DNA from: a virus
Virus record (IMG/VR): IMGVR_UViG_3300045988_092706
Coordinates: 1-32,709 of that record
Strand: one strand, 5' to 3'
DNA: 32,709 bases
In this document: piece by piece, positions 1-32,709 of the stretch
Numbering within the stretch: the first letter of the stretch is position 1
How the letters are laid out: every line of letters begins with the position of its first letter
Translations under genes and position numbers: made by a program
The notes under the pieces: model-generated
Told to the model about the DNA's origin: nothing
Databases searched by the model: none
Seen by the model: the letters and a program-made list of their open reading frames with translations, nothing else

Positions 1-510
1 AAAACCAGCAAGCGCGAAAAAGACGGTGAAGATGAGGTTCTCTTTACTATCGATTATAATTATTTTCTCGACAACTTTGACGAATGGTTTGAAAAAATCG
101 AAGAGCCGACAACCAGCGTCCGCCGCACGCCAAAAATGGGCGAGGCGTACTTCTATGTCGACGAATATGGAAACGTAGAGCGTGAAATCTGGGACAACGA
201 CGGCGTGGATAATGAGCTTCTCGCTATGGGTTTTGTCCGCCTAACGCCAGAAGAGGCTACGGAAGCCCGCGACCGAAGGCTGGCAGAAGTTAGACTGCGC
301 CAGACCTCAGACTTTGAGCCAGACTTTGCGAAGGGCAAGGGTGGCTGGGTAGTTTGCTATGATTATCTAAATAAAAAGATAGACTGCTTTGACAGTATCT
401 GGAATGACTCAGGAGAACCAGTGCGCTACGCAACCAAAGAGGACGCTCTAAAATCAATCGAAAAAAACGAAGCCGACTGGAAAAAATACTTCGGCATTAA
501 GGAGAACTAA
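1..510 (+). CDS. hypothetical protein, 3' part of a gene spanning the circular junction (5' part at 32550..32709); about 204 aa in total
   Basis: Frame 1 is open from nt 1 (KTSKREKDGEDEVLFTIDYNYFLDNFDEWFEKIEEPTTSVRRTPKMGEAYFYV...). nt 1-55 are identical to 32655-32709 and in frame with GTG 32550. Stop TAA at 508-510. Confidence 0.55.
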   Translation, partial: KTSKREKDGEDEVLFTIDYNYFLDNFDEWFEKIEEPTTSVRRTPKMGEAYFYVDEYGNVEREIWDNDGVDNELLAMGFVRLTPEEATEARDRRLAEVRLRQTSDFEPDFAKGKGGWVVCYDYLNKKIDCFDSIWNDSGEPVRYATKEDALKSIEKNEADWKKYFGIKEN

Positions 511-1545: not shown

Positions 1546-1640
1546 AAAAAAAAGTATAAAAATCTCCACAAAAACCCTTGCATTTATTGAGAGGGTACAA
1601 TATACTAAGAACATAGCAAACGTAAGAACAAAGGAGAAAA
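1546..1640 (+). promoter_or_regulatory. promoter/leader cassette copy A: -35 TTGCAT 1578-1583, 17-bp spacer, -10 TATACT 1601-1606, conserved leader CATAGCAAACGTAAGAACAAAGGAG
   Basis: Near-identical to 31504-31600 and related to 25195-25279. Sigma70-like geometry. Confidence 0.6.
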
Positions 1641-3850: not shown

Positions 3851-3886
3851 AGAACGAACACACAGGCACCTGAAAAACACAGAAGG

Positions 3887-3916
3887 CTCCGAGAATAACA
3901 ACATCTCGGGGCTTTT
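3887..3916 (+). terminator. rho-independent terminator
   Basis: Stem CTCCGAGA/TCTCGGGG with a 9-nt loop, followed by CTTTTT. Confidence 0.6.
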
Positions 3917-3925
3917 TGATATAAT
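3915..3925 (+). promoter_or_regulatory. extended -10 promoter TTTGATATAAT (-10 3920-3925), 6 nt upstream of the putative TerS ATG
   Basis: Same 11-mer as at 729 and 27438. The predicted TSS coincides with ATG 3932, so the mRNA would be leaderless. Confidence 0.45.
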
Positions 3926-9430: not shown

Positions 9431-9434
9431 AATA

Positions 9435-9443
9435 TGTTACAAT
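9435..9443 (+). promoter_or_regulatory. possible extended -10 promoter TGTTACAAT upstream of the scaffold/capsid genes
   Basis: TGnTACAAT in the intergenic region 9431-9539. Confidence 0.3.
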
Positions 9444-23676: not shown

Positions 23677-23702
23677 AGAGGGCAAAATAGCCCTCTTTTC
23701 TG
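23677..23702 (+). terminator. rho-independent terminator
   Basis: AGAGGGC aaaata GCCCTCT followed by TTTC. Confidence 0.65.
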
Positions 23703-23789
23703 TTGCAAAAATTACATAGCCACTGGCGGAAAATCCGCGCTTGTCATATAGTAAGAGTACATAAAAAATTAACCAGCAAAGGGGAACGA

Positions 23790-24272
23790 ATGGAGCGAAG
23801 AAATGCTAAAGAAACACTCGTCTTAGTATCAAAGACGGGGGACTTTTTATTAACCAAAGACGAAGCCAGAGAGGTGGCTGTAAAAATCTCAGAAGGCTAT
23901 AGAAATATTGCCCTCCAGGGGTCAGTCCTTGCGACGCACTCAATCGACGGAATACTGCCTTACGACAGATACCGCGACAGCGCCAGGATTAAGAACCGCG
24001 GCTTCATCTGTCTACACGAGAACTTCCATAGAGCGAATGAACAGTGCGCCTGCTCGCGACTTCAAGCAATCGACAAGAATAAGCAAATCGAAGCAAAGGC
24101 GAAGCCGACAACCGAAGAAGAAGCTCGAGGCACAGCCGCTCGCGAATACATACGCGAAAATCTCAAAAATCCAGAAGCGCTGAAGGACGCAGACGCCCGC
24201 GAAGCGTTTGTAAAAAAGCGCACCGCCGAAATCTTAGCAGAAAACGCGTCAGACGCGCCAGAAGCGCCGTAA
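23790..24272 (+). CDS. hypothetical protein, 161 aa (first gene after the terminator)
   Basis: ATG 23790 (MERRNAKETLVLVSK) preceded by AAAGGGGAACGA. The ORF-track start at 23703 extends upstream without an RBS. Confidence 0.45.
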   Translation: MERRNAKETLVLVSKTGDFLLTKDEAREVAVKISEGYRNIALQGSVLATHSIDGILPYDRYRDSARIKNRGFICLHENFHRANEQCACSRLQAIDKNKQIEAKAKPTTEEEARGTAAREYIRENLKNPEALKDADAREAFVKKRTAEILAENASDAPEAP

Positions 24273-24372
24273 AAATTAAAGACGATAAAGTTACGGGCTT
24301 GAACGCCAAAACGCGAAATAAAGCGGAATGAATAGCAAATAGAAGCATTAAGCAACGAAGGAGCCAAAGAAA

Positions 24373-25179
24373 ATGCTAAAAAACATACCATTTTACGCAA
24401 GTCTACTAAATCGAGAACTAGCCAACGGAAAAATAACCAAACACAGCCACGTGCTGGTTTATGGAGCCATAGAAACGCACGCGCTCGGCGATTATGGCTG
24501 TATTGCAAGCAATAAAACAATCGCGGCAGAAACAGGCTTCACAGCTGGAACCGTCGCTAACATCATAAGCGAACTCAACGCGTCGGGCTGGATTAAAGTA
24601 AACCTGGACGAGAAGCACCACAGAGTGAATATAGAGCCGAAGCTAACTATAAACGTCCCAACTTTTTCACAGGAAAGTCAAGAGCCAACAGGGGTAGACC
24701 CTTCACCCGCCGAGGAACACCCCCTACCCCGCCGAGGAACACCCCCTACACCCGCCGAAGAACCCCCCTATCACCCGCCGATGAACATAGAATACAGTAA
24801 TAGAAACAGTAATAGAAACAGTAATAGAAATACTCTACTTGTCCGCACTCGGACAAGCGAGGTGAGTAAAACCTCCGCAGAAGCTGCTGAAATAGTCGAA
24901 AAAATGCACGAAATGATAAAAAAACGACTACCAAACAGGGCGAACAAAAAGCGAACACAAGCACAGCTCCAAAAAGACATCGAAACAATCGAGAAAATCC
25001 ACAGACTGGACGGGTACAGCTACGCCGAAATTAACGCAGTGATGAAATGGTCGCAGGAGGACGACTTCTGGTCGCAAAATATTCTATCAACCGCAAAGCT
25101 TCGCAAGCAGTTTGACAAGCTGGTGCTTCGAATGAGAGCCGAGCAGAAGAAAAAGCGGGACAATATCGCTTTCATTTAA
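24373..25179 (+). CDS. replication initiator / replisome organizer with a winged-HTH N-terminus and DnaD-like C-terminus; carries iterons in its coding sequence, 268 aa
   Basis: RBS GAAGGAG. HTH TIAAETGFTAGTVANIISELNASGWIK. C-terminal GYSYAEINAVMKWSQEDDFWSQNIL (DnaD-like). Internal 22-bp x3.7 and 12-bp x3 tandem repeats. Confidence 0.55.
   Translation: MLKNIPFYASLLNRELANGKITKHSHVLVYGAIETHALGDYGCIASNKTIAAETGFTAGTVANIISELNASGWIKVNLDEKHHRVNIEPKLTINVPTFSQESQEPTGVDPSPAEEHPLPRRGTPPTPAEEPPYHPPMNIEYSNRNSNRNSNRNTLLVRTRTSEVSKTSAEAAEIVEKMHEMIKKRLPNRANKKRTQAQLQKDIETIEKIHRLDGYSYAEINAVMKWSQEDDFWSQNILSTAKLRKQFDKLVLRMRAEQKKKRDNIAFI
24704..24829 (+). repeat. iteron-like tandem repeats: about 3.7 copies of the 22-bp unit ACCCGCCGAGGAACACCCCCTA (24704-24786), then 3 perfect copies of ACAGTAATAGAA (24794-24829)
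   Basis: Direct repeats read from the sequence. Located inside the rep gene (encoding PAEEHPLPRRGTPPTPAEEPPYHPP and NSNRNSNRNSNR). Confidence 0.7.
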
Positions 25180-25194
25180 GAGGCTAAAAAATCT

Positions 25195-25279
25195 TTGAAA
25201 ATCTTCACAAAAAGGCTTGATATTTTTGAGAGAGTACAATATAATGAAAGTACAACAAACGTAAGAGAAAGGTAAAACT
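25195..25279 (+). promoter_or_regulatory. promoter/leader cassette copy B: -35 TTGATA 25217-25222, 17-bp spacer TTTTTGAGAGAGTACAA, -10 TATAAT 25240-25245
   Basis: Diverged copy of cassettes A and C, with a conserved spacer and leader core (CAAACGTAAGA). Confidence 0.6.
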
Positions 25280-25471
25280 ATGCAAGAATGCAAGCACGAA
25301 AACGCATATCTCGAAGAACCCTGCTGTGGGCGAGGCGAGAGCGGCTACGTCGAGTGCGCCTGCGGCGGAACATACGCGGTAGTATGCCCAGACTGCGGCG
25401 AAGAAGTCGACGAAGCAACCAAGAAGCGAGTTATAGAAGAAACGGAGCAACAAGATGATTACAGCGAATAG
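25280..25471 (+). CDS. small Cys-rich zinc-ribbon protein, 63 aa
   Basis: CKHENAYLEEPCCG and two further Cys pairs (CACGG, CPDCG). Confidence 0.5.
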   Translation: MQECKHENAYLEEPCCGRGESGYVECACGGTYAVVCPDCGEEVDEATKKRVIEETEQQDDYSE

Positions 25472-25892
25472 AACCTCCAGCCTAGCAGACAAGCTGCTAC
25501 AAATGGCGCTACACGACGAACTAGTCAACGGCGATTATAACGGCGACTTGCTCGCCCTCGCCAATGAGCTGGCGGAGGAGGTAGTTCTGCCAATCGACGA
25601 CAGCGGCGAGTTTATCGCCTTGCACGCCCCGCGAATACAGAAGCGACACCTGGTCGAAATCCTGGCAGGCGAAACGACCCGCGGAATAATCGCACCCGTC
25701 CAAATGGAAATCCAGGACGGCGACGAAGTGCTGGAAATCCACTACGAACCACTCGCGAGCCGAATTAACAACCAAATATTCACAGCTTGCCGAAGAATGA
25801 CAGGCAACGGCTTAGTGAGGTCAAGCACAGACCCCGAGAAGTTCTTAGAGCGAGCGATTGAGCGCTTCACGCGAACACCGCGCAAGGACTAG
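25455..25892 (+). CDS. hypothetical protein, 145 aa
   Basis: ORF overlapping the upstream gene by 17 nt. Confidence 0.45.
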   Translation: MITANRTSSLADKLLQMALHDELVNGDYNGDLLALANELAEEVVLPIDDSGEFIALHAPRIQKRHLVEILAGETTRGIIAPVQMEIQDGDEVLEIHYEPLASRINNQIFTACRRMTGNGLVRSSTDPEKFLERAIERFTRTPRKD

Positions 25893-25939
25893 CACAAATT
25901 GAGCCACTACAATATAATCAACTAAACAAGGAGAACGAA

Positions 25940-26755
25940 GTGGAAAAAATCAACGACATCGTAGCAGAAATCAAAGACGAACTCGAAAAAATGGAGATAG
26001 ACGTAGACAGCAAAGACGCACGCGCAAGCCTACGCTACGTGAGAGAGGCGCTCATAGAAGAGTCGCGCAAATCAGCCGACAAGCGCGTGGTAGGCAAGAA
26101 CGGAGCGCGCACGCTCGCCGGTATGATTGCGAAATGGCTGAACCTGAGCCTGCCCCTCGACGGTGTCAACGTCGTCATATCGGGCGCGAATATGACAATG
26201 GTTACATATCAGGGCTATAAGAACAAAGTGCTTAAATTGCACCCGAACGCGACCTTTGACGTCCAAGTAGTGCGCGAAGACGACGACTTTACGGTCGAAA
26301 AGCAGAGCGGGAAGGTCGTCTATTCTCACAAGATTAAGCCTTTCAGCAATTCAAAAATCGTCGGCGCGTATTGTGTTATTAAGACAGGCGACTCTGAACA
26401 CTACGAGGGTCTGTCAGCCGAAGACTTCGAAAAAATGAAGAAGAGTAGCCGCAACAACTACCTCTGGGAAAAATGGGACACAGAGTTTTGGCTAAAATCG
26501 GTCATAAAGCGAGCCTGCAAGCGCTACTTCTTCGAAGAGGTGAAAGACATCGACACAATCGACAATTCAGACTACGGACTGACAGAAGAGCCGCAAGAGG
26601 ACGCCTTTGAGCGATTAAAAAAAGCCGAAACGATAGCCGAATTAAAAGCTGCCTACGCGAGTCTAGCACCAGCGGAGCAAGCCTACGCCGCAACAGTCGC
26701 ACGCGAAAGACTGCGAAAAATCAAGGAAGAAACTGCGGTAAAAGTCGAGGGCTAA
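25940..26755 (+). CDS. recT: RecT-family single-strand annealing protein, 271 aa
   Basis: GTG after AAGGAGAACGAA. RecT-like block GAYCVIKTGDSEHYEGLSAEDFEKMKKSS...WEKWDTEFWLKSVIKRACKRYF. Confidence 0.65.
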   Translation: MEKINDIVAEIKDELEKMEIDVDSKDARASLRYVREALIEESRKSADKRVVGKNGARTLAGMIAKWLNLSLPLDGVNVVISGANMTMVTYQGYKNKVLKLHPNATFDVQVVREDDDFTVEKQSGKVVYSHKIKPFSNSKIVGAYCVIKTGDSEHYEGLSAEDFEKMKKSSRNNYLWEKWDTEFWLKSVIKRACKRYFFEEVKDIDTIDNSDYGLTEEPQEDAFERLKKAETIAELKAAYASLAPAEQAYAATVARERLRKIKEETAVKVEG

Positions 26756-26756
26756 A

Positions 26757-27425
26757 ATGGACACGACAACACACGAGCAGGGAACCGAGGACTGGTACAA
26801 AGACCGCCTCGGTATCCCGACCGCCAGCCGCTACGGCGATATCCTCGCCAAGCGCGGAGGGTTTGCAAGATACGAAAGCACCTCGCGCAAGAACTACCTC
26901 GCCGAATTATTGACCGAGCGGCTAACTGGTCAGCCATACAGCCGCTACGGCAAGACTAAATATATGGACTGGGGTACACAAATGGAGCCAGCCGCAAGGC
27001 TCAGGTATGAGCTAGAAACAGGCAACACAGTAGAAGAGCGCGGCTTAAAGAAACACCTCTTCCTAGAAACAGGAGCGAGCGCGGACGGAATAGTCGAGGT
27101 CGACAATTGGCGAGGCGAGGGCAAAGGCGGTATAGAAATAAAGAACCGCACACCAGCGCACCACCTCGAAGCACTCACGACAGGCAAAGTGCCGTCAATT
27201 TACATACCTCAAATCCAGGGAAATATGATGTGCGACAAGGAGCGGCTCTGGTGGGACTGGGTGAGCTACGCGCCAGACTTTTCAGAGAATGCACAGATAG
27301 TAGTAGTGCGCGTCTACCGCGACGAGGACTACATCAAGAACCTCGAAATTGAGGTGGCGCTATTCATCGACGAATTGAAAGCCGCAGAGAAAAAAGTCCG
27401 CGAATATAACGTAAAAGTATTGTAG
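26757..27425 (+). CDS. YqaJ-like (lambda Exo-type, PD-(D/E)XK) recombination exonuclease, 222 aa
   Basis: Hallmark GIPTASRYGDIL (G.TAS motif). Located immediately downstream of RecT. Confidence 0.65.
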   Translation: MDTTTHEQGTEDWYKDRLGIPTASRYGDILAKRGGFARYESTSRKNYLAELLTERLTGQPYSRYGKTKYMDWGTQMEPAARLRYELETGNTVEERGLKKHLFLETGASADGIVEVDNWRGEGKGGIEIKNRTPAHHLEALTTGKVPSIYIPQIQGNMMCDKERLWWDWVSYAPDFSENAQIVVVRVYRDEDYIKNLEIEVALFIDELKAAEKKVREYNVKVL

Positions 27426-27437
27426 CGTTACATAATT

Positions 27438-27448
27438 TTTGATATAAT
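27438..27448 (+). promoter_or_regulatory. extended -10 promoter TTTGATATAAT (-10 27443-27448)
   Basis: Third copy of the 11-mer. The leader to ATG 27481 contains RBS AAAGAAAGGG. Confidence 0.45.
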
Positions 27449-27480
27449 TAAGACACAACAAACTAAAAGAAAGGGTACGT

Positions 27481-28317
27481 ATGAACGAAGCCAACCAGGA
27501 ACTACGCCAAGCGGCGAATAAACAAATAGAAGCAATCTCACCGCTTAAAATTAAATCAAACGAGCTACTCGAGCGAGCCAAGAGCGTCAAAGTCGAAACA
27601 GCCGCAGACGTAAAGACCGCGAAGGAAGTCATAAAAGACATCACAGCACACAAGAAGTCAACAGAAGAATTACGAAAGAACTTCACACGACAATTAGACG
27701 ACGTAAAAAAGCAATTCATAAGCGCAGAGCGCGACATCTTAGCTCCAGCCGAAGAAGCTCGCGGAATTGTAGCTAACGAAATCCTAGCCTTTGAGCGCGC
27801 TGAGGAGGAGAAGAAGAAGCGCGAAGCAGAGCGCGTCTGGGTAAGCCTCCTAGAAATTAAGAGCGCGGTAGCAATCGACGACGCAAAAACACTCGAAGAC
27901 GTAGACAAGAGCGAGAAAGTCGCCGAGGAGCGCATAGCCGCATTAAACGACGACGCGAAGCACCCGCTGGCTATTGCCTTCATCGGCAAGCTTCGCCAGG
28001 AAATCGCAGAGCGAAAAATCGAGCTGGCGAAAAATCCAGAAACAGAGAAGGAAGAAGCCGAGCAACAGCTAGAAATCGACAAGGCGAAAGCCCTCGCGGA
28101 AAAAATGGAAGCCGAAGCCAGAGCCGCCGCCCGCGCAATCGAGAAGGAAGCGCCAAAGACAGGAAGTCGCGAGAAAATCACGGTCGAAATCGTGAACGCG
28201 AACGAAGTGCCACGAGAGCTTTGTGTACCAAGCGAGAGCCTCATCAAGGACTACGTAAAGAAAAGCGGCGCAGATATGGTGCCTGGCTGTATTATTAAAA
28301 GAGAGCGCGTCATTTAA
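27481..28317 (+). CDS. highly charged coiled-coil protein of unknown function, 278 aa
   Basis: E/K/R-rich (AFERAEEEKKKREAERVW). Located between the exonuclease and SSB genes. Confidence 0.5.
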   Translation: MNEANQELRQAANKQIEAISPLKIKSNELLERAKSVKVETAADVKTAKEVIKDITAHKKSTEELRKNFTRQLDDVKKQFISAERDILAPAEEARGIVANEILAFERAEEEKKKREAERVWVSLLEIKSAVAIDDAKTLEDVDKSEKVAEERIAALNDDAKHPLAIAFIGKLRQEIAERKIELAKNPETEKEEAEQQLEIDKAKALAEKMEAEARAAARAIEKEAPKTGSREKITVEIVNANEVPRELCVPSESLIKDYVKKSGADMVPGCIIKRERVI

Positions 28318-28334
28318 GAAAGGAGCTTATAAAA

Positions 28335-28742
28335 ATGGCAGACATTAACAACGTAACGCTGGTAGGAAGGCTGGTGCGCGACGCAGAAGCGCGCACCACA
28401 AAGTCGGGTAAAAACATAGCCGCCTTTACGCTAGCCGTGAGCGGAATTGAAAAAGAGTACGTCGACTTTATCGACTGCCTCGCCTGGGGAAAAACCGCGG
28501 ACGTGGTAACAAAATACACGAGCAAAGGCAAGCGCGTCGGTATTGTCGGAAAATTGCACATAAACAAATACGAAAACAAAGACGGCGAAAAACGCTCGCG
28601 AGCTGAGGTTATTGTAAACAGCATACAATTACTCTCAAGCGCAGAGGCGCCGAAGAAAGAAGAAACCGAACCAAGCGACGAGGTGAACCTCGACGACGTA
28701 AAACTCGACGAGCCAGTCGACCTATCGGAGATACCATTTTAA
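28335..28742 (+). CDS. ssb: single-stranded DNA-binding protein, 135 aa
   Basis: OB-fold N-terminus NNVTLVGRLVRDAEARTTKSGKNIAAFTLAV. Acidic C-terminal tail ending in IPF. Confidence 0.8.
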   Translation: MADINNVTLVGRLVRDAEARTTKSGKNIAAFTLAVSGIEKEYVDFIDCLAWGKTADVVTKYTSKGKRVGIVGKLHINKYENKDGEKRSRAEVIVNSIQLLSSAEAPKKEETEPSDEVNLDDVKLDEPVDLSEIPF

Positions 28743-28757
28743 GAGGAGGGAGAAAGA

Positions 28758-28976
28758 ATGAGGCAGAGAATTATAGACATAATAGCAAGGCTCTTTGTGA
28801 GCGTGGTAGTTTTCGCAATCGGAGGACTAATAACAATGCCGCTATTCATTTTTACGAACAGCCACAACTTCGTCATAAAGGTGATTGCTACGACATTTTC
28901 AGTACTGGCTATCTTAGTAATTGCGCTGATGATTATCACAATCTGGGTGCCACGAGATGACGACCTTGACGACTAG
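28758..28976 (+). CDS. small membrane protein, 72 aa
   Basis: Two hydrophobic helices. RBS GAGGAGGGAG. Confidence 0.45.
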   Translation: MRQRIIDIIARLFVSVVVFAIGGLITMPLFIFTNSHNFVIKVIATTFSVLAILVIALMIITIWVPRDDDLDD

Positions 28977-29364
28977 AAAATATCCGCTCGAGGCAGAAGA
29001 ACACAAAGCCTTTGTGAATTATCTCGAAGTTTTGCGCTTGCCGCACTTCCACGTGCCGAACGAGCAGAGCCAGCGAGCCTATCGAATGGTCAACCGAAAG
29101 CTGGGAGTATCGAGCGGAGTGCCTGACTTGTTTGTTATCATTAAATCAGAGCGAAACGGCAGAAGTAAGCTTATCGCTATCGAAATGAAGCGACAACGAG
29201 GCGCGCGCCCGACAGTATCGCCAAAGCAGAAGCTCTGGCTGGAAGAGTTGAAGCGCGCAGGAATTGACGGCTACGTAGCGTACGGCGCAACCGAAGCCAT
29301 AGACATCGTGAGAAAGGAGCTGGACAAGCTCAGGAAGGAAGACGACGACAGTGAAGTATTTTAA
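28957..29364 (+). CDS. VRR-NUC domain nuclease, 135 aa
   Basis: PD-(D/E)xK arrangement GVPDLFVI...IEMKRQRGARPTVSPKQKLWLEELKRAGIDGYVAYGATEA, typical of VRR-NUC. Confidence 0.6.
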   Translation: MTTLTTRKYPLEAEEHKAFVNYLEVLRLPHFHVPNEQSQRAYRMVNRKLGVSSGVPDLFVIIKSERNGRSKLIAIEMKRQRGARPTVSPKQKLWLEELKRAGIDGYVAYGATEAIDIVRKELDKLRKEDDDSEVF

Positions 29365-29977
29365 GCTAATTCAAGACACGCCAGAATGCAAAGCTGGCGC
29401 TATGTTTTACCAGACAGTAAACGGCGACGCTTTGGTATCGGTCGACAACGAAGCGTATGTTATCAAAATCGACAAAATAAACGACTTCGCGAAGTTCTTT
29501 GTAAAAGTCGATACGAAGCTGGCTCGGTATTTTAAGCCAGCAGTCGGCGCAAAGTACTACTACTTAACCGCAGAAGGCGAAGTGCGCGACACAGAAAATC
29601 GCGGCGAAATCACGGACGCGGCGCGAATATCACTCGGCAATAGCTTCGAGCTCTATCCAGACGCACTGGCGTATAAATCGGCGCTGATTGCACGAGCAGA
29701 GCTGGCGGCGCACTCAGCGAACCAGTACCAGCCGAACTGGAAAAACGCCTACAAAGAAATCAAAGAGAAAGAAGGCAGCTACGAAGCGACGAAGCTCGTC
29801 GAAAACACGGTGGCTTATATTATCGCGCAAGACAAGCGCACAGGCGAGCTGGTGGTTGTGCCTATGAGCGGAGCCGTGAACTATAACCCAATCGCGTACT
29901 ACGCAACCGAGGACGACGCAAAGAAAGCGCTATCACAGCAATCAAAAAACTATAAAACTTATATGGAGGCTCAATAA
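29351..29977 (+). CDS. hypothetical protein, 208 aa
   Basis: GTG start overlapping the upstream gene; ORF only. Confidence 0.4.
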   Translation: MKYFKLIQDTPECKAGAMFYQTVNGDALVSVDNEAYVIKIDKINDFAKFFVKVDTKLARYFKPAVGAKYYYLTAEGEVRDTENRGEITDAARISLGNSFELYPDALAYKSALIARAELAAHSANQYQPNWKNAYKEIKEKEGSYEATKLVENTVAYIIAQDKRTGELVVVPMSGAVNYNPIAYYATEDDAKKALSQQSKNYKTYMEAQ

Positions 29978-30178
29978 ATGACGACCAACAAAGAAATCAC
30001 TCTGCCAATCGCAGAGTATAAGAAATTGAAGAAAGACGCGGAAAAATGGCGAGCCTTTCACGAAAAAGTAGCCGCAAACGCGAAAAAACGCTGGCAGAAG
30101 CGCACACCTGAAGAACGAGCCGCAGAAATGCAAGAGCTAAGAAGCCATAGAAAGTGCTACCGAAAAGATGAAGTATAG
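29978..30178 (+). CDS. hypothetical basic protein, 66 aa
   Basis: ORF directly abutting the upstream stop. Confidence 0.35.
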   Translation: MTTNKEITLPIAEYKKLKKDAEKWRAFHEKVAANAKKRWQKRTPEERAAEMQELRSHRKCYRKDEV

Positions 30179-31388
30179 AAACCTTTCCGAATTGCACAAG
30201 CTCGAAGATAATCCGCGAACAATCGACAAGGACAGCTTCGACTCGCTCTGTCAATCGATTAAAGACAATCCTGACTACTTCGAAGCGCGCCCGCTCATTT
30301 TAAGCAACAGGACAGGTAAGCTGGTTATTTTAGGAGGAAATCAGCGCTACGAAGCCGCGAAGAAGCTCGGGCTGGAAAAAGTACCAACGCACCTCATCGA
30401 GGGGCTGACAGAGGAGCGCGAGGAAGAAATCACAATTCGCGACAACGTCAACAACGGCGACTGGGATTGGGACAAGCTCGCGAACAGGTACGACTATGAG
30501 AAGCTCGACGAATGGGGCGTGGAGGTGCCTGAACTCGACAAAGAAGAAGACGACACCAAAATTGAAGAGGTGCCGACGCCAGAAATCGAAGAAGCCGCCA
30601 AAAGCGAACTCGGAAAAATCTACAAGCTTGGCGAGCATATGCTGATGTGTGGCGACAGCACGAAGGCTGAGGACGTCTTTACTCTTATGGGGGGGGCGAC
30701 AGCGGCGCTTATTCATACAGACCCACCTTATGGAGTGTCATATAACTCGGACACACAGGGCTCAATCCAGAACGACGAAATCGTAGGCTCGGAGCTTTAC
30801 GAGTTCTTAAATAAAGCACTTAAAAACGCATACGCGACTGAGCGAGAGTTTTACAAAGCAATCGAAGACGCAGGCTTTGTAGTCAAACAGCAAATCATCT
30901 GGAACAAAGAAAGCCTGGTGCTTGGGCGAGCTTCTTATCACTGGAAGCACGAACCGTGCTACTTGGCTTTCAAAGACGGACTACGCCCAGAGGAGGCAGA
31001 AGAGCGAAAGTCGACGACGGTCTGGGATAGTCCCGAAATCCTCAAGACCCTGTCGAAAAAACAGCTTCTCGAAGAAATCGAGAAGTGGAAAGACGACAGC
31101 ACTGTCTGGGACTTGAAGCGCGACCCTCGGTCGGAATATATTCACCCGACACAGAAGCCTGTCGCGATACCAGCGCGAGCAATTAAAAAGCACAGCAAAG
31201 AAGGCGACACGATACTCGACCTCTTCGCAGGCTCAGGCTCAACCCTACTAGCGTGCGAACAGCTAGGCAGGAAATGTCGCACAATGGAACTAGACCCGCG
31301 CTTTGTGGACAGAATACGCAAGCGCTATCACTATTTTCAGACTGGCTCGACTGACGGCTGGGAAGAAGCTACTCCCGCGATAAATTAA
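30168..31388 (+). CDS. ParB-like nuclease domain fused to a beta-class DNA (N6-adenine/N4-cytosine) methyltransferase, 406 aa
   Basis: N-terminal LVILGGNQRYEAAKKLGLEKVP (ParB/Srx fold). Motif IV LIHTDPPYGVSYN precedes motif I ILDLFAGSGSTLLA (FxGxG). Confidence 0.75.
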   Translation: MKYRNLSELHKLEDNPRTIDKDSFDSLCQSIKDNPDYFEARPLILSNRTGKLVILGGNQRYEAAKKLGLEKVPTHLIEGLTEEREEEITIRDNVNNGDWDWDKLANRYDYEKLDEWGVEVPELDKEEDDTKIEEVPTPEIEEAAKSELGKIYKLGEHMLMCGDSTKAEDVFTLMGGATAALIHTDPPYGVSYNSDTQGSIQNDEIVGSELYEFLNKALKNAYATEREFYKAIEDAGFVVKQQIIWNKESLVLGRASYHWKHEPCYLAFKDGLRPEEAEERKSTTVWDSPEILKTLSKKQLLEEIEKWKDDSTVWDLKRDPRSEYIHPTQKPVAIPARAIKKHSKEGDTILDLFAGSGSTLLACEQLGRKCRTMELDPRFVDRIRKRYHYFQTGSTDGWEEATPAIN

Positions 31389-31469
31389 ATTGTGCTATAC
31401 TAAAATCGTGTTCTTACAGGCACAGGCAGAGGCGCAAATGCTGGTTGGTGCGCCTCGCTCCACTTCGAC

Positions 31470-31502
31470 AGACACTCCGCAACAGGGGTGTCTTTCTTTT
31501 TC
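31470..31502 (+). terminator. rho-independent terminator
   Basis: 9-bp stem AGACACUCC/GGGGUGUCU (one G.U pair), 6-nt loop, followed by UUCUUUUUC. Confidence 0.6.
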
Positions 31503-31503
31503 T

Positions 31504-31600
31504 TAAAAAAAGTATAAAAATCTCCATAAAAACCCTTGCTATTTTTGAGAGGGTACAATATACTAAGAACATAGCAAACGTAAGAACAAAGGAGCAAGCA
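31504..31600 (+). promoter_or_regulatory. promoter/leader cassette copy C: -35 TTGCTA 31536-31541, 17-bp spacer, -10 TATACT 31559-31564
   Basis: About 90 bp nearly identical to copy A (1546-1640). Confidence 0.6.
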
Positions 31601-31912
31601 GTGAAAAAGCTTACAACCAAAGACATCAACAACATTAAAATCTTCGCAGAAGCAGGCTACGCTATCCAAGCCAGCGACTGGACGAGCGGACGCGGTCGCT
31701 ACACAACCCGAAAGGCAACGCCAGTATTCACAGACGAATATAACCGCGAAGACTTCAAGCACGCCCTAGAAACAGGCAATAACAAGCCTCAGTGGGACAC
31801 ACCAGAGCGCACAGCCTACGACTTCTTCGTAAAGAACCCACGCGCTCGCAAGGTCTTAGTAATGGACTTCAACCAAATCTTAGAAGCCCTAAAAGGCGCA
31901 GAGATTAAATAA
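31601..31912 (+). CDS. hypothetical protein, 103 aa
   Basis: GTG 31601 six nt after AAGGAG within the conserved leader. The ORF-track start at 31445 reads through the promoter cassette and is rejected. Confidence 0.5.
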   Translation: MKKLTTKDINNIKIFAEAGYAIQASDWTSGRGRYTTRKATPVFTDEYNREDFKHALETGNNKPQWDTPERTAYDFFVKNPRARKVLVMDFNQILEALKGAEIK

Positions 31913-32292
31913 GGTTACACAAACAGTAAGCGGAACTATCTACGTCGAAGGCGACAACTACGAAGACGCAGAAAAGAACGCCAGGCAATTTATAAAGAAA
32001 GACCCAAAGCACGTAGCGTCTATCATTTTTGACGAAACCTGGATAACCGAAGTAGGCTCACAGGACGCGCCTGACGAGAGTTCTAACGAAACTAAGACAA
32101 ACTAGCACTTTTATATAAAACAGCCCACAGAGCGCTCCAGACGAGCGCAGGGCGACAACATAACGCGGTGGTGCCAGCGAAAGTGGCACTGGGACGGCAA
32201 GACTTGAGGTCGCAACTTCCATAAACCTTTCAAAAACAGCCAGACCAGCGCACCAGCCACCCTGCCCCTTTAAAAATAACGGAGAGGAGTAA

Positions 32293-32553
32293 ATGTATAT
32301 AAAATTATCAGCGAAGGTAACTCGCGACTACGGAGCGAAAGAAACGCGCTCAAGACAATTCATACGAAGACAACTGATAAATAAGAACGGAGCGACCTGC
32401 GCGCTTTGTGGTGAACCAGTCGAAACAATGAAAGACTGCACAATTGACCACATCATACCAGTCAGCAAGGGTGGCTTAACGACAATCGAAAACTGCCAGC
32501 TGGCGCATAAAAAATGTAACGCACATAAAGGAAATCGAGGAGTAAAGAAGTGA
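32293..32553 (+). CDS. HNH endonuclease, 86 aa
   Basis: CALCG...DHIIPVSKGGLTTIENCQLAHKKCNAHKG (CxxC...DH...N...CN HNH motif). RBS GGAGAGGAG. Confidence 0.8.
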   Translation: MYIKLSAKVTRDYGAKETRSRQFIRRQLINKNGATCALCGEPVETMKDCTIDHIIPVSKGGLTTIENCQLAHKKCNAHKGNRGVKK

Positions 32554-32709
32554 AATATAAACTACTTAAAGACTTGCCCTTTGCAAAAGCGGGCGAGGTC
32601 TTCGAAAGAGTAACCTATAAGAGCAAAGACGGTCTGTCAGATTATGATTACTTTAAAACCAGCAAGCGCGAAAAAGACGGTGAAGATGAGGTTCTCTTTA
32701 CTATCGATT
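32550..32709 (+). CDS. 5' part of the junction-spanning gene (continues at 1..510)
   Basis: GTG 32550 overlaps the HNH stop (GTGA). In frame with the repeat 32655-32709, which equals 1-55. Confidence 0.5.
   Translation, partial: MKYKLLKDLPFAKAGEVFERVTYKSKDGLSDYDYFKTSKREKDGEDEVLFTID
32655..32709 (+). repeat. 55-bp exact duplicate of nt 1-55 (circular closure or terminal redundancy of the assembly)
   Basis: Direct string identity. Confidence 0.9.

Follow-up and report, generated by a model that had tools for sequence, protein, structure and literature searches.

Why a phage should place the same cassette of about 95 bp at the head of separate gene blocks, and why the likeness between the copies should reach past the promoter hexamers into the spacer and the transcribed leader, is the question raised by this locus. 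An earlier note had read the cassettes as promoters with leaders and had suggested a common regulator-binding site or a shared RNA leader. We examined this reading in the window, that is, the whole stretch of 32,709 nucleotides, and in related contigs from viral and metagenomic collections.

The window begins and ends with the same 55 bases (1-55, repeated exactly at 32655-32709), consistent with a genome of 32,654 bp assembled as a circle or with terminal redundancy. All sizeable reading frames lie on the plus strand, where A greatly exceeds T. The gene set is that of a small tailed phage, with terminase, portal, Mu-F-like head protein, tape measure and a CHAP/CW_7 lysin, together with a DnaD/O-like replication organiser, RecT, exonuclease, VRR-NUC, a ParB-methylase, an HNH protein and a MetK-like protein. 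The labels portal, Mu-F, tape measure and SSB were taken from the Pfam annotations of a more distant, syntenic relative, L079 (annotated with an SPP1-type portal and a Mu-F-type head protein), and from reading of the translations; the Pfam and/or PHROGs scan took in 29 of the 49 listed reading frames, including the orphans of the early region. No integrase, repressor or sigma factor, and likewise no lysogeny genes, were recognised in the phage genome. Its strong Shine-Dalgarno (SD) sites, its CW_7/CHAP lysin and its closest cultured terminases, those of Clostridium, Fusobacterium and Streptococcus phages at 46-48% identity, point to a Firmicutes-type host. Searches of GenBank phages by megablast and blastn with the window, the cassette and the structured RNA described below returned no useful match and no close cultured relative. 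A tRNA search of the window found none, and Rfam, run over the whole window with E values up to 1, gave just two implausible lncRNA matches, both away from the cassettes.

Repeat searching recovered three direct copies of one promoter-plus-leader module of about 95 bp on the plus strand: cassette A, the reference copy, at 1547-1639 (start codon ATG 1645); cassette B at 25186-25278, 73% identical to A (ATG 25280, of a Zn-ribbon protein); and cassette C at 31505-31597, 95% identical to A (GTG 31601). These positions are within a few bases of those first proposed, and the identities bear out the description of A and C as nearly identical and of B as a diverged version. A 20-nt core, TTTTGAGAGRGTACAATATA, has three matches at up to 3 mismatches against 0.00 expected from 100 dinucleotide shuffles, the motif TACAATAYAMT occurs four times against 0.03 expected, and the 10-nt leader core, AAACGTAAGA, is exact in A, B and C.

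The internal order of elements is the same in each copy. In A, three A-tracts (1548-1552; 1559-1565, AAAATCT; 1571-1574), spaced about 10-12 bp, precede a -35 element TTGCAT at 1578-1583, a 17-nt spacer at 1584-1600 and a -10 element TATACT at 1601-1606; these are followed by an invariant A at 1613, the seventh nucleotide after the -10 and the predicted +1, by the leader core at 1618-1627 and by the SD site AAAGGAG at 1630-1636. The corresponding elements of B are TTGATA (25217-25222), a 17-nt spacer, TATAAT (25240-25245), the leader core (25257-25266) and the SD site GAAAGG (25267-25272), and those of C are TTGCTA (31536-31541), a 17-nt spacer, TATACT (31559-31564), the leader core (31576-31585) and the SD site (31588-31594). 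The -35 and -10 hexamers and the exact 17-bp spacing thus read as the earlier note had them. AAAGGAG stands ahead of the start codon in A and C, and GAAAGGTAA in B; the start codon lies about 32 nt beyond the predicted +1 A.

These features are those expected of sigma-70/sigma-A promoters: TTG is conserved in the -35, the spacer is 17 bp, the -10 fits TAnnnT (as TATACT, TATAAT or, at a fourth site, D, found in relatives, TACAAT, with T1, A2, A4 and T6 invariant), and the A/T-rich region at -40 to -60 holds the three invariant A-tracts, which lie about one helical turn apart in the manner of an UP element. A promoter scan listed B (11/12) and C (9/12); A was not listed, and its TTGCAT shares only 3/6 bases with TTGACA, under the scan threshold of 4. 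Alternative registers, with TACAAT as -10 or TTGAGA as -35, were rejected, as their spacings leave no partner hexamer at 16-18 bp. A structured leader, such as a riboswitch, an attenuator or a nut/boxB-type site, was ruled out by weak folding (-2.4 to -6.1 kcal/mol, z +1.4 to -0.6; for A, -2.4 and +1.4) together with the lack of an Rfam match.

We therefore consider it probable that the cassettes form a single family of strong promoters of the sigma-A/sigma-70 type, joined in every case to a shared short leader. The promoter-plus-leader reading proposed earlier agrees with the canonical elements, which are correctly spaced and invariant in the 53 cassette versions compared below, and with the position of each copy at the head of a terminator-bounded unit. 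Host RNA polymerase of the sigma-A/sigma-70 type would read the cassettes, with the phased A-tracts serving as an UP-like element; transcription would most likely start at the invariant A seven nucleotides past the -10; and an unstructured, purine-rich leader of about 32 nt would bring the SD site to the first gene. The elements and their spacing, like the invariance pattern, terminators and mosaicism described below, are read directly from the sequence, and from them we infer promoter activity and the start site. Several points weigh against a family of strong promoters: the -35 of A has only half of the consensus bases, the motifs TTnTTG (-29 to -24) and TACAA (-17 to -13) are unexplained by canonical sigma contacts, the relatives are all close, so that invariance partly reflects shared ancestry, and the relative L079, whose terminase is 60% identical, shows no cassette in the genome half covered by our reading.

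The terminators divide the genome into units that each cassette would open. One at 1487-1519 (13-bp stem and U-run; -15.7 kcal/mol, z -6.2) ends unit C just upstream of A, one at 31470-31493 (-16.7 kcal/mol, z -5.5) ends unit B and abuts C, and one at 3880-3918 (-22.2 kcal/mol, z -7.6) ends unit A, all on the plus strand. Unit B thus extends from 25186 to 31493, unit C from 31505 across the circle junction to 1519, and unit A from 1547 to about 3918, each closed in the proposed scheme by its intrinsic terminator. The gene content that had been assigned to the three downstream blocks is as described, but their ends are not, since each unit runs on to its terminator; in unit B, for example, the Zn-ribbon protein is followed by RecT, exonuclease, SSB, VRR-NUC and ParB-methylase. 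Overall, the cassette units hold pre-structural functions, namely recombination and replication genes, the MetK-like protein, the methylase and small orphan genes, and from this content it is reasonable to infer the coordinated early regulon suggested earlier, with early timing as a presumed part of it.

A second class of promoter, TTTGATATAAT, carries a TGnTATAAT extended -10 and no -35. It has three exact plus-strand copies (0.35 expected for all matches), at 729-739 upstream of the structured RNA, where it is invariant in 18 related contexts; at 3915, directly before the small terminase gene; and at 27438, inside unit B. The copy at 3915-3925, the promoter of the terminase/late block, overlaps the U-run of the terminator at 3880-3918. 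A TGTTACAAT is present at 9433. The second class would lie at the head of the terminase/structural block and of the structured RNA, and within unit B it would start an internal part. Promoters that depend on a -35 appear to be assigned to the pre-structural genes, and -35-independent ones to the structural block; a timing or switch factor behind the two classes may be supposed.

Relatives were collected from viral contigs, scanned by DNA pattern and by protein anchors, with a small number of metagenome contigs added. About half of the matches in the first viral-contig scan were unrelated repeat families in large contigs, and genome-contig matches to TACAATANANT-N11-AAACGTAAGA (three Alistipes MAGs and one Ignavibacteriaceae) proved on reading to be unrelated sequence. 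A metagenome scan with a GC-rich 17-mer of the structured RNA added at least 6 further clade members, among many chance matches. In all, about 20 related genomes or contigs were obtained, with RecT 92-99% identical; no terminase relatives were found between 98% and 60% identity.

A hidden Markov model of the three copies placed the cassette family at four orthologous sites in these relatives: site B before the Zn-ribbon gene, site C after the methylase terminator, site A before the MetK block, and site D about 300-630 nt past C, before a small gene starting MVYEIKVTQ. In the window, cassette D has been deleted, with the stop codon of the first unit C gene joined to codon 6 of the D gene; a promoterless, 5'-truncated remnant of the D-headed gene at 31913-32105 (plus strand) marks the deletion. 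A DnaA box was found upstream of A and D; genome-wide, such boxes are not enriched (7 versus 3.6 expected). Repeat and motif searches also found a degenerate member of the family before RecT (25890-25918, plus strand), in which TAGCAC occupies the -35 position and overlaps the stop of the upstream gene, followed by ATTGAGCCACTACAA and by TATAAT at 25913-25918. This copy keeps ATTGAGnnnnTACAATATAAT, lacks a -35, A-tracts and leader core, and is conserved in relatives.

Comparison of 53 distinct cassette versions from the related contigs, over 90 columns, sharply separates constant from variable blocks. Invariance extends to 47 of the 90 columns: the A-tracts (AAAAA, AAAATCT, AAAA), CTTG of the -35, TTnTTG at -29 to -24, TACAATA-A-T at -17 to -7, the A at 1613, AAACGTAAGA and SD positions. 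By contrast, variant counts are 12 for the block near -50, 5 for the 3' half of the -35, 9 for the spacer centre (AGAGGG, AGCCGT, TGAGGG, GAACGG and TGGGGG among them) and 14 for the 11 nt that follow the -10. The conserved spacer claimed from the window alone is therefore reduced to its two ends, TTnTTG and TACAA, its central 6 nt being variable once relatives are included. The direct repeats GTACAA/GAACAT/GAACAA that had been placed in the leader do not survive the comparison: A and B do not carry them in register, and the block that they occupy is the most variable one. The cassettes have no TG at -15/-14, and TTnTTG and TACAA together give just a 3-bp dyad, TTG-N8-CAA; the two motifs may be idiosyncratic polymerase contacts, in the way supposed for the extra consensus regions of T4 early promoters (PMC2988021), or a protein site.

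Much of the likeness between A and C has a recent origin. In the window, both the spacer centre and the post -10 block of C are of A type, whereas 13 of the 14 other C copies have AGCCGT or AGCAGT at the spacer centre, and the post -10 block differs in all 14, being AAGAATACGAC in 13. Comparable exchanges are seen in other contigs: TGGGGG is present in A and C alike in L058, the post -10 blocks of A and C are exchanged in L065, and the B copy of L005 and L018 carries the -10 and following block of A type. The copies evolve in concert through short conversion tracts between paralogues, which accounts for the 95% identity of A and C here, and their near-identity is in large part due to C having recently been converted by A within this genome. 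Conservation between genomes is also to be read with restraint: orthologous A and B cassettes are 92-93% identical, against 90-96% for adjacent coding DNA, and the 10-nt invariant run reaches only a modest permutation P of 0.04. Judged from these comparisons, the clade has not diverged for long enough that conservation by itself could establish function.

A separate line of evidence bears on the leader. The non-coding region at 733-966, downstream of the promoter at 729, folds at -64.7 kcal/mol (z -4.9), and folding and repeat searches predict a structured non-coding RNA, or 5'UTR of gene 966, at 765-951 on the plus strand. It is closed by an 18-bp helix (765-782/934-951) that varies among 15 relatives only between G-C and G-U, which fits an RNA of the plus strand; energy does not discriminate between strands, as the minus strand folds nearly as well (z -3.9). 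No terminator was found after the structured RNA. A coding reading of the region was rejected, its 29-codon frame having no SD site and being frame-shifted by a 2-nt indel among relatives; the protein encoded downstream is confined to this clade. A second candidate non-coding RNA, at 32100-32295, was not significantly structured (z -0.5).

The weakly paired apical part of this structure carries, at 864-880 on the plus strand, a segment found by complement searching, UACCUUUGUUCUUACGU, which we call the anti-leader. Its bases 866-880 (CCUUUGUUCUUACGU) are the exact 15-nt reverse complement of ACGTAAGAACAAAGG, present at 1620-1634 in A and 31578-31592 in C, and the target, ACGUAAGAACAAAGG, comprises the leader core and SD site of these two copies. 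This is the only reverse-complement match without mismatch in the genome to the 15-mer of leader and SD, and none of 2000 dinucleotide-shuffled versions of the genome contained a complement to the A leader as long as 15 nt, a length of 14 nt being attained once. With the leaders of B and D, whose SD site is AAAGGUA, 864-880 pairs at 16 of 17 positions, as 9+7 bp including UACC with GGUA. Predicted net energies are -18.8 kcal/mol for A and for C, -17 to -18 for D and -12.7 for B, compared with only -6 to -10 kcal/mol for four other start regions, and opening the anti-leader segment costs 3.6 kcal/mol in silico. In 18-19 related contexts neither the 729 promoter nor the anti-leader varies, except for an extra T in two anti-leaders, where the leader has no matching change; two single-base leader variants (A to G, C to U) both stay paired as G-U. 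Otherwise, leader and anti-leader show almost no variation over about 20 contigs. Inspection of the reverse complement by eye, for a promoter that would transcribe the inverted leader copy from the minus strand, showed nothing convincing; the region's sole promoter-like match on that strand, a weak 9/12 site (764-735), lies downstream of the inverted copy. The view that the similarity exceeds that of mere promoters is supported in part, by AAACGTAAGA, the two spacer flanks and the complement at 864-880, and is not supported for the whole spacer and the repeats: gene conversion weakens the claim for the spacer, while the invariant core and its complement strengthen that for the leader.

Several explanations for this constancy may be considered, some of which can coexist with the promoters. 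A possible addition to the promoter reading, which we put forward tentatively, is that the leader is held constant as the target of a phage antisense RNA. The structured RNA would be made from the 729 promoter and also within the unit C transcript, its segment 864-880 would pair with ACGUAAGA...AAAGG(UA) in the leaders of A, B, C and D and cover the SD site, and translation or stability of the first cistron of each cassette unit would be reduced, as feedback or as early shut-off. The unique complement, unmatched in the shuffles, the stronger predicted binding of the four leaders than of other start regions, the cheap opening of the segment on a stable scaffold whose closing helix varies as a plus-strand RNA would, and the invariance of promoter and anti-leader, with leader variants that keep G-U pairing, all argue for such a target. 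Yet leader and anti-leader hardly vary, so that no covariation supports the pairing, and the two extra T's are unmatched; two invariant A's 5' of ACGTAAGA fall outside the duplex; the minus strand folds almost equally; the structure, having no terminator of its own, may be the plain 5'UTR of gene 966; and the match could be a functionless relic, an inverted fragment of a cassette leader. The full form of the idea, that in a lytic-type phage of a Gram-positive-type host one structured RNA, made from a -35-independent promoter, silences the first cistron of every -35-dependent early unit at once through the common leader handle, strikes us as doubtful; if true, it would also explain the constancy of the leader and not of the promoter alone. 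The inverted copy at 866-880 would have another meaning if the extra invariant blocks (TTG-N8-CAA and/or +6 to +15) were a DNA operator for a phage or host repressor or activator, for it could then be an autoregulatory site before genes 966 and 1276. That TTnTTG and TACAA are fixed in 53 versions while the intervening 6 nt vary is the usual look of half-sites, the degenerate copy before RecT retains both despite the loss of its -35, UP-like tracts and leader core, and the leader 15-mer recurs inverted beside two clade-specific orphan genes. A protein that acts in trans on these blocks is nevertheless unlikely in our judgment: the dyad arms are just 3 bp, the leader block lacks symmetry, the 29 of 49 reading frames scanned with Pfam and/or PHROGs gave no helix-turn-helix, repressor, sigma or anti-sigma family, and a site in the spacer implies a repressor in a phage that shows no lysogeny genes.

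The remaining explanations require no partner for the leader. The cassettes may be promoters only, their extended similarity produced by recent duplication and gene conversion, with invariant blocks that have not yet mutated in a young clade. The exchange of tracts is clear, the identity of A and C in the window comes from conversion, the orthologous cassettes as a whole are conserved no more than neighbouring coding DNA, and the run-length test gave just the P value above; as an account of the whole pattern, we find this questionable, as B and D, at a divergence from A of about 27% or more, still share the single-variant 10-nt block, this block adjoins the 11-nt block with 14 variants although conversion should homogenise both, and an independent 15-nt complement is hard to ascribe to drift. 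It is also rather improbable that the leader core acts in cis, as a 5' mRNA stabiliser or translation enhancer that recruits ribosomes or blocks a 5'-exonuclease. A purine-rich 5' segment in an early RNA of Bacillus phage SP82 reportedly acts as a stabiliser (work of Hue, Cohen and Bechhofer, 1995), and the leader here is purine-rich, is less structured than shuffled controls, places its core 3 nt from the SD site and confines it to the promoter class expected to fire first. However, an invariant 10-mer is more than a generic enhancer should need, the core is missing from well-placed SD sites elsewhere in the genome, and the complement at 866-880 would be left unexplained. The reading that we prefer thus remains a promoter family with a common leader, to which antisense shut-off is a plausible addition suggested by modelled pairing.

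For an uncultured clade seen in many metagenomes, the analysis provides a transcription map of three terminator-bounded early units and an extended -10 class, as well as a compact and probably strong set of promoter/5'UTR parts of Firmicutes type. The complementary element is the only part of specialist interest: if the pairing is functional, it would show how a single RNA can allow a virulent phage to close down several of its early operons, a form of early shut-off about which little is understood.

Among known systems, the early promoters of T4 also have consensus regions additional to the canonical elements (PMC2988021). As in T4, a strong family of promoters for host polymerase, with an A/T-rich UP region, -35 and -10, would serve pre-replicative genes within one phage, and the consensus extends beyond the canonical elements in both. 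In contrast to the dozens of copies in T4, there are 3-4 full copies and one degenerate copy here; the TGn that is included in the T4 promoters belongs here to a separate class; and the present cassettes, in a phage of a Firmicutes-like host, are conserved through the transcribed leader to the SD site.

A second system is built even more similarly. The promoter-early stem-loops (PeSLs) of the T4-type phages RB49 and phi1 are conserved intergenic modules of about 100 bp (PMC2839356) that span the upstream stop codon, an AT-rich region, -35, -10, SD and the next start codon, with a terminator stem-loop (PMC2839356); they precede small orphan genes in an indel-rich region, and chimeric copies indicate recombination between modules (PMC2839356). 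The present cassettes share the module of about 100 bp with AT-rich region, -35, -10, SD and start codon, A and C abut terminators, the region from C to A has several gene indels, and blocks are swapped among copies. They fall short of membership in the PeSL class in copy number and indel breakpoints, and probably also in stem-loop placement: about 50 PeSLs occur per genome, versus 3 full copies in this 32.7-kb phage and 4 in relatives; the stem-loop lies inside the PeSL promoter region, whereas the terminators here are separate and upstream, and absent at B and D; and the deletions in the window, in L056/L064 and in L060 break outside the cassettes, at short microhomologies. These breakpoints do not show cassette-mediated gene shuffling or mini-circles.

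Phage antisense RNA repressors, among them the P4 CI RNA, P22 sar and lambda OOP, are small structured RNAs that block expression by pairing at a ribosome-binding site or close to it. The closest likeness to such systems here is to the c4 and P4 CI RNAs, in that a structured phage RNA displays, in silico, a 15-17-nt complement to leader and SD. The c4 RNA of P1/P7 is needed for full ant repression in the immI operon (PMC8198154, citing Citron and Schuster 1990). These RNA repressors act in immunity or lysogeny of temperate phages and on one operon, whereas this phage has no recognisable lysogeny genes and the putative target is a leader common to three or four separate units. We take the cassettes to be an ordinary phage early-promoter family in a new clade, PeSL-like in build, and a clean small-genome example of the concerted evolution of regulatory cassettes that has been described for the PeSLs of T4-like phages.

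The first and last 55 bp of the window (1-55 and 32655-32709) form an exact terminal direct repeat. The window is thus a 32,654-bp phage genome whose assembly is circular or terminally redundant, and cassettes C and A, two of its repeated promoter-plus-leader modules, are therefore separated by only ~2.7 kb across the junction. Gain and loss of small genes are concentrated in the interval from C to A, a hot spot seen in the window (31912-32105) and in related viral contigs of the same clade (L062, L060, L053, L056, and L064). Missing from the window are the MTEAEK gene, cassette D (a fourth family site, located before the MVYEIK gene in relatives), and codons 1-5 of the MVYEIK gene. In L056 and L064, cassette D and its gene are absent; L060 lacks the HNH gene and the first gene of unit C, the block headed by cassette C. 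The deletion junctions in this interval carry short microhomologies, and cassette sequence is not found at them.

Just upstream of cassette A lies a DnaA-box-like 9-mer (1532-1540), which reads TTGTCCACA in the window versus TTATCCACA in many relatives; it sits within a segment, AAGTTRTCCACAG, shared by cassettes A and D and lying shortly before each. Across the genome, DnaA boxes are not enriched (7 observed versus 3.6 expected). The terminators upstream of A (1487-1519) and C (31470-31493) share the loop and the start of the 3′ arm, AACAGGGGT, and their stems differ by changes matched on both arms. The two may be diverged copies of a single ancestral terminator-plus-promoter unit.

A second predicted promoter class is represented by three exact plus-strand copies of the extended -10 element TTTGATATAAT (TGn, no -35) at 729-739, 3915-3925, and 27438-27448, with a related element, TGTTACAAT, before the scaffold/capsid genes (9433-9443). 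The copy at 3915 directly follows a terminator. Its -10 ends 6 nt ahead of the small terminase gene's ATG, and since that gene lacks an SD, this first late gene may be translated from a leaderless mRNA. Downstream of the copy at 27438 lies a leader, ACAACAAACTAAAAGAAAGGGTA (27449-27480), that is a diverged relative of the one in cassette B, ACAACAAACGTAAGAGAAAGGTA, and does not contain the invariant core.

The copy at 729-739 precedes a plus-strand structured non-coding RNA or 5′UTR (765-951) upstream of gene 966. Its predicted fold is stable (z -4.9), and it is strongly conserved among relatives, with the closing helix varying by G-C to G-U only; an Rfam scan of the window returned no family for it. 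Inside this RNA lies the anti-leader (864-880), a segment complementary to the cassette leader core and SD, to which ACAACAAACTAAAAGAAAGGGTA has weak predicted pairing (-5.9 kcal/mol net).

Within the DnaD/O-like replication organiser gene (24373-25179), four tandem repeats of CCCTTCACCCGCCGAGGAACACCCC (24699-24791; 22-23 bp each) look like an iteron-type replication origin inside its own initiator gene. Downstream of the terminator 3′ of the lysis block (23678-23699), TTGTCA-17-AAAAAT (23741-23769), with a spacer, AGAGTACA, similar to the cassette spacer, is probably the promoter for genes 23791-25179. The true start is likely the ATG at 23791, and the annotated TTG start at 23703 is probably wrong.

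The unit headed by cassette A includes a MetK-like protein (2090-2926; PHROG 1569), in which only the N-terminal S-AdoMet synthetase domain passes the Pfam cut-off. At 278 aa, it is shorter than cellular MetK.
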